The notes below the pieces were generated by a model that did no database searches, was not told the origin of the DNA, and worked only from the letters and a program-made list of their open reading frames with translations. A stretch of DNA of 64,000 nucleotides from a virus (lineage: Duplodnaviria; Heunggongvirae; Uroviricota; Caudoviricetes): IMG/VR virus record IMGVR_UViG_2675903433_000022; one strand, 5' to 3'. Both the position numbers and the translations under genes were made by a program. This document shows positions 42,870 to 50,612 of the stretch, one piece after another. Each line of letters starts with the position of its first letter. Position 1 is the first letter of the stretch.

Positions 42870-43055
42870 ATGCTTAAAGAAGACTCATATCTACTAAAGG
42901 CGCTTGAAATGCGTGGCGTTGAACCTACAGTGAAAAACGCTCACGATATCTACCTTCAGTTTTCGCCAGAGCTGAAACAGCTCATAAATAAATATGGAGT
43001 GAATGACTCCAGCGTCAAAGCCATGATAGATGATGAATTAGACCATCTCATCTAA
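42870..43055 (+). CDS. hypothetical protein
   Basis: Track ORF 61 aa. Confidence 0.35.
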   Translation: MLKEDSYLLKALEMRGVEPTVKNAHDIYLQFSPELKQLINKYGVNDSSVKAMIDDELDHLI

Positions 43056-43189
43056 CCAAACCGTTGATAATGGCGGTCACAATTTGATTCTTTTCTATAA
43101 GAATCCGTTGATCGCCACTACTCCCCTTCCATACCTGCAATCATATCCTTAAATATCAATAGGTTATAGTTGTTTGCACAAACAAGAAA

Positions 43190-43930
43190 ACAACTGAATA
43201 ACAGATCAACGAAACGTCAACGCTTTCTCCCGATTTGGTCTAAAAAATTGACGTTTTCACACATCACTTCTTATACCCGTAATTCTACGCAGCAGATAGC
43301 GCCACAGCGTTCAATTTTCACCACAGACGACTCAACACACTACCAACAAAAACACACGCTCAAAATCGCTCCCGTTGCGTTACACAACCATATAAACAAC
43401 TTATTTTCAGGTATAACAAAACAACTAAATAACACATACGCCATTACCAAAAACAACCAACCTCTTTATGGCAGGCTACCGAAAAGACCCACCTCTTCTT
43501 CCCAGGCTACCGGACAGCCAACCTAACTTTCACAGGCAATCCGAAAACATTCATACGCGCGATACCCACGACACGCCATTACCCAAACATCGAAGAAACA
43601 CCAGAATCACTGAAACCCCAACGAAGTCTGTAACCGCAAGGCTTCTCTCAATCCCAAAAGACACGAAACATAACAATCACGGGAAACGCCATTACCCAAT
43701 ACACGAATAACTACAAAAGCCCTTCACACACTCCAGACAAACAACTCAAACACAATAACGAAAGGAATAGCCCACCTGCCATTACTCCATATACGGAGAA
43801 GAACAATAACCATAACGACGAGAACACCCCATAGAAGAACCACCGCAAAACGAACGAAACCACATACACCGACAGAGAAAACAACACACCCAATCCACCA
43901 ACAGAAATAGTCGCCCTATAGAACGTTCTG
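43190..43930. repeat. strand-asymmetric A/C-rich, G-poor noncoding tract with internal repeated modules
   Basis: About 740 bp with almost no G runs on the plus strand; recurring ACGCCATTACC(C)AA and CAGGCTACCG..CCACCT units; track ORFs here are low-complexity artefacts. Confidence 0.5.
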
Positions 43931-44119
43931 GTAGGAGTGAGCATTAACGCCTATAGAGAGGTTGAGACAGATAAAACACGAAGAAAACACAACATGTATA
44001 GCGAAGAAGCCAGGTATGTATAAGTGGGGAGGGAAGGAGGGGTGTCGCCTCCTTTTTCGTATTTATTCAACTCCTGATTTTATCCCCCGTAACACCCCTA
44101 CGGTCAGCCTTCGGTCCAT

Positions 44120-44265
44120 ACAGGGAAAAGGTTGCATCCCGCTACAGAAACGGCTGGATTGCCTTCGGGGAACGGCTGGAGGTTTTCAGGGAAACGGTCG
44201 AGCTGCCTTTGTGGATTTCGGGAAAAGGCTCGATGCCGGTTCAGGAACGGTGGCGTACCGGTATA
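44120..44265. repeat. tandem ~22-bp repeats with GGGAAACGGC core (about 6 units)
   Basis: Units CAGGGAAAAGG.., CAGAAACGGCTGG.., GGGGAACGGCTGG.., GGGAAACGGTCG.., GGGAAAAGGCTCG.., GGAACGGTGG.. Confidence 0.6.
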
Positions 44266-45534: not shown

Positions 45535-45930
45535 ATGACCGTTAAACGCGAAAAACTGACAGTTGATGTTTACTATGCCTCTGAAACCGCCGAAGGTAAG
45601 AATGTGGCAAAAATCACCGTTGTTACGTACAACACCGAAACTGGTGCCGAAGTACAGGCCAGTACGATCGTGCGTAAAGGTGATGCCTCCGGCGGCGAGT
45701 ACGCGACTCAATACCAGTCCATTCTCGATGCAACTGACCCGCTGCTGCTGAAAATCGAGAACTACTTCCGCCAGGTTGATGAAGAGGTGTTTGAAACCAT
45801 GATGAATATGGTTAACACAGTATTCGCCTCCAGCCTGAATACCAACACTACCTGGATTGGTCAGTACGGCCTGCGCATTACCTCCGGCATTCCTGCTGAC
45901 ACCTTAATCCCTGAAAGCGTATTCGCTTAA
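45535..45930 (+). CDS. hypothetical protein
   Basis: Track ORF 45469..45930, ATG 45535 after GGAGAG. Confidence 0.5.
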   Translation: MTVKREKLTVDVYYASETAEGKNVAKITVVTYNTETGAEVQASTIVRKGDASGGEYATQYQSILDATDPLLLKIENYFRQVDEEVFETMMNMVNTVFASSLNTNTTWIGQYGLRITSGIPADTLIPESVFA

Positions 45931-46421: not shown

Positions 46422-46771
46422 ATATGGGCGATTTCAAGAAACGCCTGAAGGAAAGAGCCGAGATGGTCAGAAAGCAAAACGCCTCTTCTGTCATCAGATA
46501 TGCAAGGCAGTTTAGTCGCAACAACAAATCAGTTGAGGAAAAGATCCTTAGCGTAATCGGGCGATAATTATTAAGGCCATCAGCATTGGTGGCCTTAAAT
46601 GACCATCCTGTTTCCCGCAGGCTAAAAACACCAACCTCTTACCTCCAGGCAACCGACAAACCCACCTGTTCCCGTCCGGCTACCGCAACTTTCCACTTTG
46701 ACGCCTTATTCGTACAACGATAATTAACACCAACAAGAAAACAATTTGTTATTTACGATAAGGAATTAATC

Positions 46772-47254
46772 ATGAATTTTATCGCTACTGTAAACGCACC
46801 CGCACATGGCAATATCGTTGTAACGTTCTCTGACATTGAAAAACGAGTACTTGGTGCCTGGCGTCACAATGAGACGGTAGAACTGTCAGAACAAGAAAAA
46901 TGCATTATTTCACGCGACATCATTGGCAATCGTCGTTACTCGCGGGTATTTGAGAAAGCGTATGTGGTAAATTCTGGATTCGGAACGTTCGTCTTTCCGG
47001 TGCGCTCCGGGCGATTCTGCCAGTCCAAGCTGATTGAGTTCGCTACGCAGATTTCTGTCTGGATTAAAACTCAATCGTCGTTCAAATTTTCCGACGATGA
47101 AGCAGTATCGCAGGGGATGCGGATCGCCAACAATGCGATTAAATGCAAAAACATTACGTATACCGCTGGCGTTGATACATGGAAACTGTTTTGCGCTAAC
47201 TTTATGCTGAATGTATACGCAAGCAACCGCATCCACATCCTTGATGGCGTGTAA
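46772..47254 (+). CDS. hypothetical protein
   Basis: Track ORF 160 aa after an AAACAAtTTGTT palindrome. Confidence 0.5.
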   Translation: MNFIATVNAPAHGNIVVTFSDIEKRVLGAWRHNETVELSEQEKCIISRDIIGNRRYSRVFEKAYVVNSGFGTFVFPVRSGRFCQSKLIEFATQISVWIKTQSSFKFSDDEAVSQGMRIANNAIKCKNITYTAGVDTWKLFCANFMLNVYASNRIHILDGV

Positions 47255-47289
47255 CTGAGAAGAGGGCCAGAAACGGCCCTTTCTCTATA

Positions 47290-47395
47290 GCCACCAGCTG
47301 CCGCAGGGAAATTTTCAGAAACGGCGAGGAACGCATTCATGAGCCGACGGGAAACGGCCAGGATTTTTTCGGGAAACGGCTGCATTCGCCTTTGT
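47290..47395. repeat. second tandem GGGAAACGGC-core repeat cluster (3-4 units)
   Basis: CAGAAACGGCGAGG.., GGGAAACGGCCAGG.., GGGAAACGGCTGCATTCGCCTTTGTG; same family as 44120-44265. Confidence 0.5.
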
Positions 47396-47870
47396 GTAGA
47401 AAAAAACATCGGGAAGCTGGTGGAATCCAACCAGCGGTTGTCGGACAGGTGAGCGGGGAAAATTATGATGACTTTCGTCGCCTGAGACATCCAGATTTCT
47501 TTCGTAGCGTAATCACATACGTGATTAAGTGGTGTGATTATGTGAAAAATCACGCGCACATAATACGCGAGCGGATACGGAACAAAACAAAATGCCGATC
47601 CGCGCCGACAATTAAACGCGGACACATAGCAAGAATAAAAGCCAATGATTAACCATACACCATAACGCAATATAACGCGATTTAAGCGCGTTAATGCGCT
47701 AAGTAATGGGTATGTACTGGTAAGGATATAAAAGCGCGTCTATGGCGTTATTTTGGCGCTTATTTTTATGTTGTTGGCTTGAGTCAAAGACAATAAAAAA
47801 AGCGCCATCATTGGCGCGTTATGGTGGAAGTATTGGAAACGAAAAAAGCGCCCATAGTGGGCGCTCGATT

Positions 47871-48101
47871 TTATTTGTGTAAACTGATTTTAAATCCCAT
47901 TTCTACAAACGCTTTTAACATTAAAAATATATCAGCGTCGTTCACGTCTGCTTTTTTTCGCTCCTGGTCGCTCAATAAGTCAATTTTGCGCGTCGTTTCA
48001 TCTATAAGCTCGACTGCGCGCCCAGCGTAACCAGCGATCCCAGCGATGCGATTAACATAATATTCATTATGGACGTTAACGCCAGCGATAAGAACAAACA
48101 T
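47871..48101 (-). CDS. hypothetical protein
   Basis: Track ORF 76 aa in an AT-rich minus-strand block; flanked by inverted copies of an AGCGCCCATAGTGGGCGCT hairpin. Confidence 0.4.
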   Translation of the reverse strand: MFVLIAGVNVHNEYYVNRIAGIAGYAGRAVELIDETTRKIDLLSDQERKKADVNDADIFLMLKAFVEMGFKISLHK

Positions 48102-48120
48102 GATTAAGCTCCTTAAAAAA

Positions 48121-48324
48121 TTAAATAGAATTTTGAAGTTTTCCGATTAATGCGCTTAAACGTAAGTATTCACGTTTACGCTTGCAATCTCGCTTGTTGT
48201 TAAGCAAATCAGAAAACGTAAAATTTAATTGGTCGCGTTGCGCGATCAAATCATCGATTAATTCCAGTTTATAAGCGCGATACTTTGCGCGATATTCCGC
48301 GCGGATCTTGTCATAGCTGACCAT
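48121..48324 (-). CDS. hypothetical basic protein
   Basis: Track ORF 48121..48369; probable start at the internal ATG (48324) because the longer ORF overlaps a hairpin. Confidence 0.4.
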   Translation of the reverse strand: MVSYDKIRAEYRAKYRAYKLELIDDLIAQRDQLNFTFSDLLNNKRDCKRKREYLRLSALIGKLQNSI

Positions 48325-48372
48325 CTTTAAAGCTCCTTTAAAGCGCCCACTATGGGCGCTTGATTCCATTAA

Positions 48373-49023
48373 TTACGCTTTGAAAGCATCAGCTAAATAA
48401 TTGTAGAAATCATTTTTAATGAAGCGATATTGCTGAGTACCAGCTTTCGCACTCCCAGCTCCTTTGACTTTTTCAACAAGTCCAAGACGTTCGCAAAGAT
48501 TGATCAACTGGTTGGCTTGAGTATAGCCAGCGTCCAATTTAATTTCACACGCTTTTTTAGCTTCATTCATTAAATCGAAAACAGCGCCATTGGTGAACGT
48601 GTCGATCTCGTCGTTAATCATATCGATTAAAGCGAATACACGAGATCCAGACATATCAGCGATGGAATAAACGCATTTACCAGATTTAATTGATTTAACC
48701 AGATAAACCAGTTTTTCCAGAGAATAACTATTAGTCATTGCATCACGGAAAAATACTTCTGGCGCTTGTTTGCTTGCTTTAATCGCATAGTAGAAAACAG
48801 AGCATAATTTTTCGTCTTCAACAGCGTTTACAACGTTGTTGATGAAGTAAGCAAGTTTAGTGGTCGCAGCTTGCATATTTGCTTTGTCTGCTTTAGTGTG
48901 CGTACCATTTTTATAATGTTCGTTATATGTTTGAGTTGCCAGATCTGCTTTTTCGCGCAGTTCATCGGATACAATGGAAGCAGCTTCAATGATGGATTTT
49001 TTAGAAATGATAATGTTAGCCAT
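48373..49023 (-). CDS. hypothetical protein
   Basis: Track ORF 216 aa; AT-rich codon usage distinct from neighbours. Confidence 0.55.
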   Translation of the reverse strand: MANIIISKKSIIEAASIVSDELREKADLATQTYNEHYKNGTHTKADKANMQAATTKLAYFINNVVNAVEDEKLCSVFYYAIKASKQAPEVFFRDAMTNSYSLEKLVYLVKSIKSGKCVYSIADMSGSRVFALIDMINDEIDTFTNGAVFDLMNEAKKACEIKLDAGYTQANQLINLCERLGLVEKVKGAGSAKAGTQQYRFIKNDFYNYLADAFKA

Positions 49024-49306
49024 GATAATTTTTCCTTATGTAAATTTAAAATTTATTGTCGTTAGCGTCTTCGCTTTCGACGAGTTCAATTATCGATACA
49101 CGAAAAAAGATTGCAAGTGTTTTTTTAAAATTTTTTGCAGGGATGAAAGTCCTAGAAATAAAAGCGAGATCGTCGAAGGTGTTCCCTAAATAAATAATCG
49201 ATTCCGACTTTCGACCTTATATATATTTAGATTATTTGATTTATAGATATAAAGAAGTGATGTGAAAAATAATAACCGGACTTAGCCGGTTATTAACCTT
49301 ATAGAT

Positions 49307-49615
49307 TTATTGAACAGACTCTACAGCCTTACGATTGGTGTCAAATAGCGCATCAACGAACTGTGCCGATGACTCGCTAGATTCGCAATCCAACATTGCC
49401 CGTTCTTCATTTGCCACTTTCTTACACAGTTCCACATTCTCACCTATCGCTTTTCCTGCTTTTACGGCTGCCGAAAATTGATACATGCAAACTGATACAT
49501 TCTGAGACGTTGAGCACACGTCATTCATCAGCGACTGAATGACAGGCTTATAGTCCATTGCATTTGCCGCAACTGAGCAAAGTAAAAATAATGGTGGTAA
49601 CAATATCGATTTCAT
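49307..49615 (-). CDS. hypothetical secreted protein, Cys-containing
   Basis: Signal peptide MKSILLPPLFLLCSVAANA. Confidence 0.5.
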   Translation of the reverse strand: MKSILLPPLFLLCSVAANAMDYKPVIQSLMNDVCSTSQNVSVCMYQFSAAVKAGKAIGENVELCKKVANEERAMLDCESSESSAQFVDALFDTNRKAVESVQ

Positions 49616-49618
49616 AAC

Positions 49619-50143
49619 TCAAAAAGGCAAAATTCGCTCAACCCAATCGAACAAAACAACTATTTTTCTACCGTTCTCGACACGTAGTGTAACCTGACAA
49701 GCATCTGCGCCTGCTGACACTCCCTCAATTTCACGGCCATCCGCCATGTACACCCTTATAGATTTGTTTGCTTTGTAGGCTTGGTTGCAAATTGCAAAAA
49801 AATCGCGGCGTGATGGCCGATTATCGACATAATCAGGGTGAACTGTTAGTCGACCTTTGAAATCGTGAGCGATACTGTCAACCACACCTGATTCAATTGT
49901 ACTAATGCGTTCAAGTGGGAGCCTTATACGATTTTCTTTATCAAAAGGGGCTGGGCAAAGGTCAACTTTGTTACGAGATGGCATGAGGCCATAAACGTAC
50001 ATGCAAAACGCCTGGCCATCTTCGAGAGTGACCCTTACAGGAATTTGTTCTCTGCGCCAGAACATCAGTAGTTTTTCAACGTTAGTGTAATCTCGCGGCC
50101 AGAGTTCAGCTTGGATACCGTAGGTAATATCTTTGGTTGTCAT
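49619..50143 (-). CDS. hypothetical protein
   Basis: Track ORF 49619..50221; start moved to the ATG at 50143 (MTTKDITYG), 4 bp after the upstream stop. Confidence 0.45.
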   Translation of the reverse strand: MTTKDITYGIQAELWPRDYTNVEKLLMFWRREQIPVRVTLEDGQAFCMYVYGLMPSRNKVDLCPAPFDKENRIRLPLERISTIESGVVDSIAHDFKGRLTVHPDYVDNRPSRRDFFAICNQAYKANKSIRVYMADGREIEGVSAGADACQVTLRVENGRKIVVLFDWVERILPF

Positions 50144-50147
50144 GTCA

Positions 50148-50612
50148 TCACAGAGTTGTTGGCAGAATGTCGATGTCACCAGAATTGCTGGTGAACACCC
50201 TGAACGCTTTTGTGTCTCCATTCTTCAGAGTCGTTTCTCGCTCTTGACGAGCGGGGTTTAGAGCACATAAACCTGCACCTTCAAGAGATGCACCCACAAT
50301 TAATTCTCCGGCATTTAAATGGAAAGTCGCTTTTTCGCCTGTAGCCAGTTTTGCGACAGTTTCGCCGTTGATGAAAATGGAAGCATCACATCCAGCTCCT
50401 ACAAAACCTGTGTCTCTCATTACCACCAACGTAGCTGGCGCTGCGCTTTGATACTTGAACACTTTGGCCTGCGGTGCTGGTTTGGCGTCATGGATTGATA
50501 TTGGGCGTGATTGGCACGCGGTAAGCATCAACACTGGTAACGTTAGTAGAGGGAGAAGCGAGTATTTCATGATAGTTTTAGAACAGAAAGTGAACAGTAT
50601 GGGAGACTTCAT
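50148..50612 (-). CDS. putative lipoprotein
   Basis: Lipobox LTAC after a hydrophobic segment; AGGGAG RBS before the ATG at 50612 (alternative start at 50570). Confidence 0.55.
   Translation of the reverse strand: MKSPILFTFCSKTIMKYSLLPLLTLPVLMLTACQSRPISIHDAKPAPQAKVFKYQSAAPATLVVMRDTGFVGAGCDASIFINGETVAKLATGEKATFHLNAGELIVGASLEGAGLCALNPARQERETTLKNGDTKAFRVFTSNSGDIDILPTTL

Follow-up and report, generated by a model that had tools for sequence, protein, structure and literature searches.

Does an AT-rich block of three hypothetical genes set among hairpins represent a recently acquired foreign cassette, or is it an old part of the element that carries it? The question is raised by positions 47680-49300 of a 64,000-nucleotide stretch of viral DNA (Caudoviricetes; IMG/VR record IMGVR_UViG_2675903433_000022), which in its whole length is referred to here as the window and in which a first-pass annotation, made from the sequence alone, had described a separately acquired cassette. 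The three minus-strand genes listed at that time are all present as open reading frames (ORFs), encoding proteins of 216 aa (48373-49023), 67 aa (48121-48324), and 76 aa (47871-48101). Only the 67- and 76-aa genes vary among relatives, and the block consists of one core gene and a small variable slot. We consider it likely that the block is one self-contained transcription unit whose slot is bounded by terminators, in which a hairpin loop has inverted recurrently, and which is silent in the one lysogen for which data are published.

The window is an SSU5/pHCM2-type phage-plasmid of Escherichia coli, an assignment based on its matches to ~110-kb plasmids and to the phages CMS-2020a, PhiR41_1, Cyrano, and SSU5. 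A 1.7-kb region of the block matched 778 plasmid records in PLSDB, the best of which were E. coli plasmids of ~110 kb at 98% identity; phages PhiR41_1 and CMS-2020a were 94-97% identical to the region, and Cyrano and SSU5 also matched. Phage-plasmids of this type are widespread in Enterobacterales, the majority of their genes are unannotated, and they are known carriers of resistance genes (PMC9600943). PhiR41_1, SSU5, Cyrano, and pJN2-26 share a common gene order consisting of a helicase, one or more small genes, an FljA-like regulator, the block, and a convergent 160-aa gene. By annotation the element encodes T4-like UvsY, gp32-like single-stranded DNA-binding (SSB), RecA/UvsX-like, UvsW-like helicase, RuvC-like, and SbcCD-like proteins, and a RepA replicon is annotated elsewhere on it.

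Relatives were collected in two scans, one of IMG/VR for the hairpin and another for the 216-aa protein, the latter scan being unbiased as to the hairpin. Both scans combined gave ~140 loci with the 216-aa gene; a scan of GTDB genomes contributed only five. Subsets of these were used for hairpin presence and GC content (85 unbiased loci or relatives), for loop sequences (82 distinct loci), and for an alignment of the 320 nt upstream of the 216-aa gene (64 distinct loci). Individual loci carry L numbers, among which L213-L215 denote more distant relatives, L214 having been recovered by profile search only. The 216-aa gene was present in every relative examined, while the 67- and 76-aa genes were patchy. 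Synteny around the 216-aa gene was kept in all phage records fetched for E. coli, Salmonella, and Klebsiella and also in IMG/VR and genome contigs, including those from Yersinia pestis, Kluyvera, and Buttiauxella. By its distribution the 216-aa gene is a core gene of SSU5-like phage-plasmids, found always at this position.

The hairpins provide the boundaries of the slot. A 19-nt hairpin occurs in two exact copies, AGCGCCCATAGTGGGCGCT (47847-47865) and, as its reverse complement, AGCGCCCACTATGGGCGCT (48342-48360), which differ only in the 5-nt loop (ATAGT versus ACTAT) because the arms AGCGCCC and GGGCGCT are palindromic. The pattern AGCGCC-N3-12-GGCGCT had only these two matches in 64 kb (0.02 expected; none of 100 shuffles reached two), and the relaxed pattern GCGCC..GGCGC had three in the window and three in the 105 kb of Cyrano, all at this locus; since the family is confined to this locus in both, an origin by local duplication is indicated. 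Three hairpins, HP1, HP2, and HP3, have a GC-rich stem of at least 5 bp and a 3-8-nt loop just past a stop codon. HP1 (48342-48360, minus strand; AGCGCCCAUAGUGGGCGCU followed by UUUAAAGGAG in the mRNA) lies between the 216- and 67-aa genes, 12 nt past the 216-aa stop, and has a folding energy of -15.1 kcal/mol. Its stem is followed only by UUU and then by AAAGGAG, the ribosome-binding site (RBS) of the 67-aa gene, and it falls short of a U-tract of at least five U within 8 nt 3' of the stem (UUUAAAGG). Because only three U follow, we call HP1 leaky. In nearly all 85 unbiased loci the 216-aa gene is immediately followed by HP1, which is read as a leaky terminator, a 3' stabiliser, and the putative upstream boundary of the cassette slot.

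HP2 (47841-47866; GAGCGCCCACUAUGGGCGCUU followed by UUUUCGUUUC in the mRNA), which was returned by a terminator scan of both strands, lies 5 nt past the 76-aa stop, folds at -15.5 kcal/mol (z = -4.9), carries a full U-tract (UUUUUUCG, UUUUUU), and is kept in all relatives. It also has a terminator score on the plus strand and is therefore probably bidirectional, as fits a convergent gene junction; we predict that HP2 is the main terminator of the operon and the downstream boundary of the slot. HP3 (47795-47817, minus strand; GCGCCAAUGAUGGCGC followed by U7) was found by terminator scan and folding and is a putative back-up terminator. Its hairpin, GCGCCA-TCAT-TGGCGC, spans 47802-47817, is followed by T7 on the minus strand, and folds at -10.7 kcal/mol; it lies 46 nt after HP2 and 53 nt after the nearest upstream stop, and is conserved with variation in the loop. 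HP3 is a diverged tandem copy of the same hairpin unit as HP2. Where the protein is 49-62% identical, relatives have the hairpin two or three times at a spacing of 44-47 nt (identical in L081 and L036), a layout from which the pair HP2-HP3 has diverged, and the tandem copies in distant relatives form a 44-nt unit. In every locus read, a U-tract on the coding strand follows the last hairpin. The hairpin is altered in L213 and L214, and L215 has unrelated terminators in its place. The related hairpin that had been pointed out near 47800 corresponds to HP3, while a further candidate near 47730 folds only weakly (-6.2 kcal/mol, z = -0.84).

Several other observations concern this sequence and its surroundings. 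An Rfam scan of 46500-50500 at a permissive E-value gave sub-threshold chance matches only. Exact matches to the 17-mer in unrelated viral contigs were rejected as chance, most being high in GC, apparently inside coding sequence, and devoid of a U-tract. In two IMG/VR entries unrelated to the element (L014, 2186-2202; L116, 565-581), the identical 17-mer GCGCCCATAGTGGGCGC stands, in a phage contig of 50% GC, between a TATAAT-like hexamer and an RBS with ATG, which may be a leader hairpin or a coincidence. The non-coding convergent spacer of ~600 bp holds inverted ATCACA/TGTGAT-type repeats at 47500-47570 (aatcacatacgtgatt; gtgtgattatgtgaaaaatcac), a stretch that aligns poorly with more distant relatives.

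The content of the slot differed among the ~140 loci, in which at least seven arrangements were found, hairpin-bounded in almost all cases. The slot may be empty, leaving one hairpin with a full U-tract, or may hold the 67-aa gene, the 76-aa gene, both (as in the window), a paralogue of the 76-aa gene (45-51% identical, found in relatives), the 67-aa gene with this paralogue, or the series paralogue-hairpin-76-aa gene with three hairpins. Where arrangements were read in detail, a long U-tract came after the last hairpin, and three or four U and then AAGGAG came after the internal ones; the junction sequence shared by the arrangements would comprise the hairpin, the first U residues, and the RBS. 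The enclosed small genes never changed orientation. Homologues of all three proteins were found only on contigs of ~105-112 kb from the SSU5-like family, plus a few larger contigs; because the 67- and 76-aa homologues lie almost exclusively on SSU5-like contigs, the slot is apparently filled from the family's own gene pool.

The optional 67-aa gene has an AAGGAG RBS before its ATG, which is located at 48324 and not at 48369; the gene is annotated at 204 bp in PhiR41_1, SSU5, and pJN2-26. Its product was modelled as a helical hairpin and belongs to PHROG 6145. The name 'putative MIT family metal ion transporter CorA' (SSU5_119 in SSU5, JQ965645; PHROG 6145) was rejected as an annotation error because a soluble helical protein of 67 aa cannot be a transporter of this kind, and the label 'MIT family metal ion transporter' of PHROG 6145 traces to the GenBank annotation of SSU5. 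The 76-aa gene, likewise optional, begins 19 nt after the 67-aa gene without an intervening hairpin, and its product was modelled with a ferredoxin-like beta-alpha-beta-beta-alpha-alpha-beta fold at low model agreement. A 9-bp tandem repeat, CCAGCGATN, at 48022-48056 within this gene encodes (I/Y)AG tripeptide repeats, and homologues differ by 1, 3, or 6 residues in this stretch, a pattern consistent with slippage.

The loops of the hairpins explain why the two 19-nt copies in the window appear inverted. The loop ACTAT on the coding strand was the majority state, with 61 of the 82 distinct loci at HP1 and 69 at the last hairpin, and its reverse complement ATAGT was found in 10 and 9 loci, respectively. 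Loop variants form reverse-complement pairs (ACTAT/ATAGT, ATTAT/ATAAT, ACAAT/ATTGT, and ATCAT/ATGAT). By Fitch parsimony, at least 9 flips occurred at HP1 and at least 7 at the last hairpin, for a total of at least 16, as counted on a neighbour-joining tree of the adjacent gene, where recombination could inflate or deflate the counts. Some flipped pairs were only 0.3% apart in the adjacent gene. Two direct copies are carried by 37 of the 82 loci, and four loci (L131, L132, L137, and L142) have direct copies even though their 216-aa protein is 100% identical. The loop of HP1 in the window is flipped relative to the majority state, and the inverted relation of the copies is therefore explained by a recent loop inversion at HP1 and is not a structural feature. 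In most relatives the copies are direct. Inversion of a loop by template switching between perfect arms is a described class of mutation (PMC8794818, PMC8604942), and repeated inversion between perfect arms by this route would be the simplest account of the pattern.

Transcription of the block can be followed from its upstream side. The terminator of the preceding gene (49270-49295, minus strand; TAATAACCGG-CTAAGT-CCGGTTATTA then T5), found by terminator scan, would mark the upstream limit of the transcription unit; it is kept at protein identities of at least 73% and is diverged, partly with compensatory changes, at 49-62%. A promoter scan placed a predicted sigma-70-type promoter at 49089-49116 on the minus strand, with -35 TTGCAA (49116-49111), a 16-nt spacer, and -10 GATAAT (49094-49089), an A-tract just upstream, and a distance of 66 nt to the start codon of the 216-aa gene. 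CTTG at the -35 and the -10 core ATAAT are conserved in almost all of the 64 loci, down to 49% protein identity; the -10 is GATAAT in most relatives and GATGAT in two close ones. A few nucleotides past the predicted transcription start lies a 24-nt stem-loop in the 5' untranslated region (5'UTR; 49058-49081, minus strand; GTCGAAAGCG-AAGA-CGCTAACGAC), with a folding energy of -9.8 kcal/mol (z = -2.4). Among 32 distinct sequences, 93% of the cells of this stem were paired and compensatory changes occurred at 3 of the 8 pairs, the outermost pair changing from A-U to G-C in six sequences; relatives at 49% identity have a different 7-bp stem at the same position. The 216-aa gene is preceded by an AAGGA ribosome-binding site.

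Further upstream, the alignment revealed three conserved blocks on the coding (minus) strand. B1 (49215-49224; ATATATAAGG) is invariant in the 64 sequences, unique in the window and in Cyrano, present in L213, and found in three copies in L214. B2 (49175-49193; TTATTTAGGGAACACCTTC) is nearly invariant, unique in the window even at 3 mismatches, and recognisable in L213-L215. B3 (49146-49162; TTTATTTCTAGGACTTT, which in most relatives reads TCTAAGACTTTGA) is the most deeply conserved non-coding element and persists in L215; it fits the IHF consensus in most relatives, though not in this window. The spacing B1-B2-B3 is fixed at 31 and 33 nt without indels, the distance from B3 to the promoter varies, and the blocks are conserved more strongly than the 216-aa protein. 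Further copies, as would be expected of a general repressor operator or a late promoter, were found in neither the window nor Cyrano. The three TTCGAC-type repeats that had been singled out in this region are present (TTCGAC or its complement GTCGAA at 49076, 49172, and 49210), and no other 283-bp stretch of the window holds three of them; some 6-mer, however, occurs at least three times in 82% of random windows of that length, so that the count is unremarkable and TTCGAC is not the conserved unit. As an operator repeat TTCGAC was rejected on this account and because only the 5'UTR copy is conserved. That first repeat is explained as the 5' arm of the 5'UTR stem, the second lies at the 3' edge of B2, and the copy at 49210 is mutated already in relatives with an identical 216-aa protein. 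The related TCGAAAG occurs in the window at background frequency.

The protein encoded by the core gene belongs to a narrow family, with 23 cluster representatives among 1.84 billion proteins. Searches of all three block proteins against Pfam, NCBIfam, PADLOC, and PDB sequences gave nothing above threshold. The AF2 model of the 216-aa protein (pLDDT 83, pTM 0.75) combines a long helical domain at the N-terminus with a winged helix at the C-terminus, in which the alpha-beta-alpha-alpha-beta-beta fold is present and no named sequence family was matched. The predicted recognition helix (residues 168-179) is almost invariant in the family, which fits a conserved DNA target. On the model, the 216-aa protein most likely binds DNA; candidate targets are B1-B3, the hairpin palindrome, and GAAACGGC repeats downstream of the block.

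With regard to expression, RNA-seq of the LF82/Cyrano lysogen (S1 table of PMC9928086) gave 5.9 and 5.0 normalised counts for CYRAN_113 and CYRAN_112, the homologues of the 216- and 76-aa genes, respectively. The floor of that data set was 4.99, structural genes had 7-10, and the putative repressor had 96 (PMC9928086); the unit was therefore at the detection floor, as were the capsid genes. Because a near-consensus promoter is silent in the lysogen and the 216-aa gene is highly codon-adapted (see below), we read the block as a repressed lytic unit, probably an early one, that is switched off in the plasmid state. In the mechanism proposed, HP1 would stop most transcripts and protect the 3' end of the 216-aa message; the 216-aa protein would be made in excess over the two accessory proteins, since the accessory genes depend on read-through of HP1; and HP2 together with HP3 would shield the convergent plus-strand genes. 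The hairpin would have been duplicated locally, its copies serving as short homologies for the gain, loss, and exchange of small genes within the family, and the 5-nt loop would invert between the perfect arms by template switching to give the inverted copies seen in the window. It is a speculation that the T4-like recombination proteins and SbcCD-like nucleases of the element take part in slot exchange. Three 'hypothetical proteins' are in this way placed on an operon map that includes a promoter, a 5'UTR element, an attenuator, and terminators. The locus unites in compact natural form two processes mostly known from other settings, namely the shuffling of genes at a short terminator motif and recurrent hairpin-loop inversion (at least 16 events in a small sample). 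It is a case of ordinary biology with an evolutionary twist and not a foreign insert.

A number of points weigh against this account. Relatives whose protein is as little as 49% identical still have the same hairpin arms, whereas at 62% the nearby terminator (49270-49295) is no longer the same. Arm conservation of this degree exceeds the need of termination alone, and the only explanation that the present account offers for it is concerted evolution of a multi-copy recombination linker. The skew between loop states (61:10 and 69:9) is unlike free neutral flipping, and the loop sequence may therefore matter. The three ultra-conserved blocks B1-B3 are given no role in the proposed unit. The winged helix is a model-level assignment at modest Z. 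Finally, promoter, HP1 leakiness, and timing in the lytic cycle are predictions, and the expression evidence consists of silence in one lysogen of one relative.

The first of these points leads to the alternative that survives best, although we regard it as unlikely: the palindrome GCGCCCA-N3-TGGGCGC may be a sequence-specific recognition site and the hairpin array a dedicated system of regulation or cassette exchange, read either by the 216-aa protein through its winged helix or by a nuclease or recombinase of the element, for which SbcCD would be a candidate. Arms that are invariant to 49% protein identity beside an ordinary terminator that diverges would be accounted for, as would the concentration of variation in the central bases, which is expected of a palindrome bound by a dimer, and the presence of hairpin copies at almost every cassette junction; the neighbouring protein has an invariant predicted recognition helix, and SbcCD-, RecA/UvsX-, UvsY-, and RuvC-like proteins are encoded by the element. 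However, the U-tract after the last copy shows a polarity and position that terminator function explains, concerted evolution also keeps arms identical, there is no recombinase gene at the locus, and L214 and L215 carry diverged or unrelated terminators there. A still more inclusive version, in which the palindrome, B1-B3, and the orphan winged-helix protein form one dedicated system with the protein or a hairpin nuclease or recombinase of the element reading the palindrome, is slightly more doubtful again. If it were true, read-through into the accessory genes would be controlled, or their exchange catalysed, and the locus would amount to a minimal cassette platform, delimited by hairpins and private to phage-plasmids of the SSU5 type.

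Somewhat less probable than either is that the locus forms a replication-origin-like module, with an abundant early winged-helix protein acting as origin-binding initiator or accessory factor at B1-B3 in a region of 30% GC or at the downstream GAAACGGC repeats as candidate sites. The upstream region has a GC content of 0.30 and A-tracts, with B1-B3 spaced at 31 and 33 nt without indels; four GAAACGGC repeats lie within 110 bp at 47270-47380; a helicase gene is kept in synteny; and the 216-aa model gave weak structural hits to Orc/Cdc6 and phage replication initiators. These hits are generic for winged helices, though, and the protein has neither sequence nor whole-fold similarity to known initiators. 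In addition, a RepA replicon is annotated elsewhere, GC skew tracks gene orientation without an origin signature, and there is a second small GAAACGG cluster 3 kb away. The repeats themselves, of the form (A/G)GAAACGGC, occur four times in direct orientation within 110 bp after the 160-aa gene (47263-47380, plus strand) and are iteron-like, with further sites at 44147 and 44191. The GAAACGGC 8-mer has only five exact copies in 64 kb; the first of the four direct repeats is inside the hairpin AGGGCC-AGAAAC-GGCCCT; the repeat blocks are kept to 62% protein identity, and 3-5 motif repeats are found beyond the homologous gene in L213 and L214.

That the three genes were separately and recently acquired as a foreign cassette bracketed by inverted repeats, a reading that starts from the separately acquired cassette of the first-pass annotation, is very improbable, notwithstanding a composition that is as unusual as that annotation had stated. 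The GC content of 47871-49023 was 0.383 against a window mean of 0.46 (1.2th percentile), that of 47680-49300 was 0.374 (0.13th percentile of the window), and the lowest 1-kb GC of the window, 0.357, begins at 48351 within the block. The GC3 of the 216-aa gene (0.336) was the lowest among the real genes of the window. The block also has its own promoter and terminators, and its two small genes are patchily distributed among relatives, all of which would suit a foreign cassette. The 216-aa gene, however, is syntenic in every relative examined and is poorer in GC than its flanks in all of the 85 relatives compared. It is furthermore well adapted to E. coli codon usage: its codon adaptation index (CAI), computed with Sharp and Li weights, was 0.456 (rank 5 of 89 window ORFs), compared to a window mean of 0.29 (sd 0.085), values of 0.24 and 0.26 for the small genes, and 0.617 for the likely capsid gene. 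The low GC of the 216-aa gene goes with A/T-ending preferred codons and a protein rich in Lys, Asn, and Ile. Because this gene is AT-rich in all 85 relatives and its codon adaptation is high, we take its AT-richness to be an old family trait and not the mark of a recent import. By itself, a low GC content is a poor guide to recent acquisition, and here it is coupled with high codon adaptation and universal conservation. Homology searches of the three proteins, moreover, returned matches within the SSU5-like family and none in other elements, and the repeats are direct in most relatives. Acquisition can hence be maintained for the two small variable genes only and not for the block as a whole. 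Virtually no weight is left to the idea that a mobile or invertible segment (of the MITE-like or invertase-switch kind) has the 19-nt copies as its ends, since these copies, exact reverse complements 476 nt apart as they are in the window, have palindromic arms in which only the 5-nt loop sets the orientation, enclose genes that are never inverted in the 140 loci, stand as direct copies in 37 of the 82 distinct loci, and have neither a visible target-site duplication nor a transposase or invertase gene nearby.

Other features were recorded in the neighbourhood of the block. The FljA-type gene at 49619-50221 (minus strand) encodes a full-length match to 'repressor of phase-1 flagellin' (PF03614, E = 2.5e-84), the C-terminal part of which also has weak similarity to Hfq (E = 0.001). 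Most relatives keep this gene in synteny with the block. FljA is a regulator that acts on an mRNA leader, and the conserved 5'UTR stem-loop nearby may be a candidate target of this copy. Between this gene and the block lies a 102-aa ORF (49307-49615, minus strand; PHROG 9536) with a signal-peptide-like N-terminus; PhiR41_1, Cyrano, and SSU5 either lack this ORF or have another in its place, so that it would mark a second variable slot. Just upstream of the convergent junction, a 131-aa ORF (45535-45930, plus strand) has a CAI of 0.52, the second-highest in the window. The 1-kb bin 43001-44000 has a GC skew of -0.352 and an AT skew of +0.334, where values elsewhere in the window stay within about +/-0.17.

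Comparison with known systems places the locus among several of them. From a recent genomic island it differs in that the block, atypical in composition, has a core gene that is universal in relatives and no homologues outside the family. Like the cassettes of an integron, the small ORFs are promoterless, are each followed by a hairpin repeat, and stand behind one promoter. The attC site is a 57-141-nt imperfect site with R and L boxes, whereas the hairpin here is a perfect palindrome of 17-21 nt; there is no integrase in the 13.7-kb annotated neighbourhood, the only integrase of Cyrano lying ~58 kb away, and no GTTRRRY core at the slot junctions read. With phage morons the slot shares small optional genes that end in a terminator and vary in presence among close relatives; it differs from them in that no promoter of their own precedes the small genes and in that CYRAN_112 is at the floor in the LF82 lysogen.

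The hairpins resemble intrinsic terminators and intercistronic attenuators in their GC-rich 7-9-bp stem, short loop, position past stop codons, and U-tract after HP2 and HP3, and depart from them in that HP1 has only three U and that the arms are conserved beyond the need of pairing and reused as a cassette boundary. The loop changes agree with template-switch inversion as described (PMC8794818, PMC8604942), the loop being reverse-complemented with the stem unchanged and the change recurring on independent branches; what would set the present case apart is its high frequency in a phage-plasmid terminator, with at least 16 events in 82 loci and four loop sequences. The slot also resembles the promoter-early stem-loop (PeSL) cassettes of T4-type phages (Arbiol et al. 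2010, PMC2839356; Comeau et al. 2014, PMC4122927), where, as here, a short conserved motif that includes a terminator stem-loop flanks small non-essential ORFs, the endpoints of indels and replacements fall at the motif (as evidenced by alignments and census), and the motif offers homology for modular shuffling, the element here encoding T4-like recombination proteins. In contrast to PeSL cassettes, whose composite motif joins a strong sigma-70-like early promoter to the stem-loop, there is no promoter-like site between hairpin and next gene, only 17-20 nt with the RBS leading to the next ATG; there are three copies at one locus (in the window and in the 105 kb of Cyrano) as opposed to many dispersed in hyperplastic regions; and the slot genes would be read-through cistrons of one operon.

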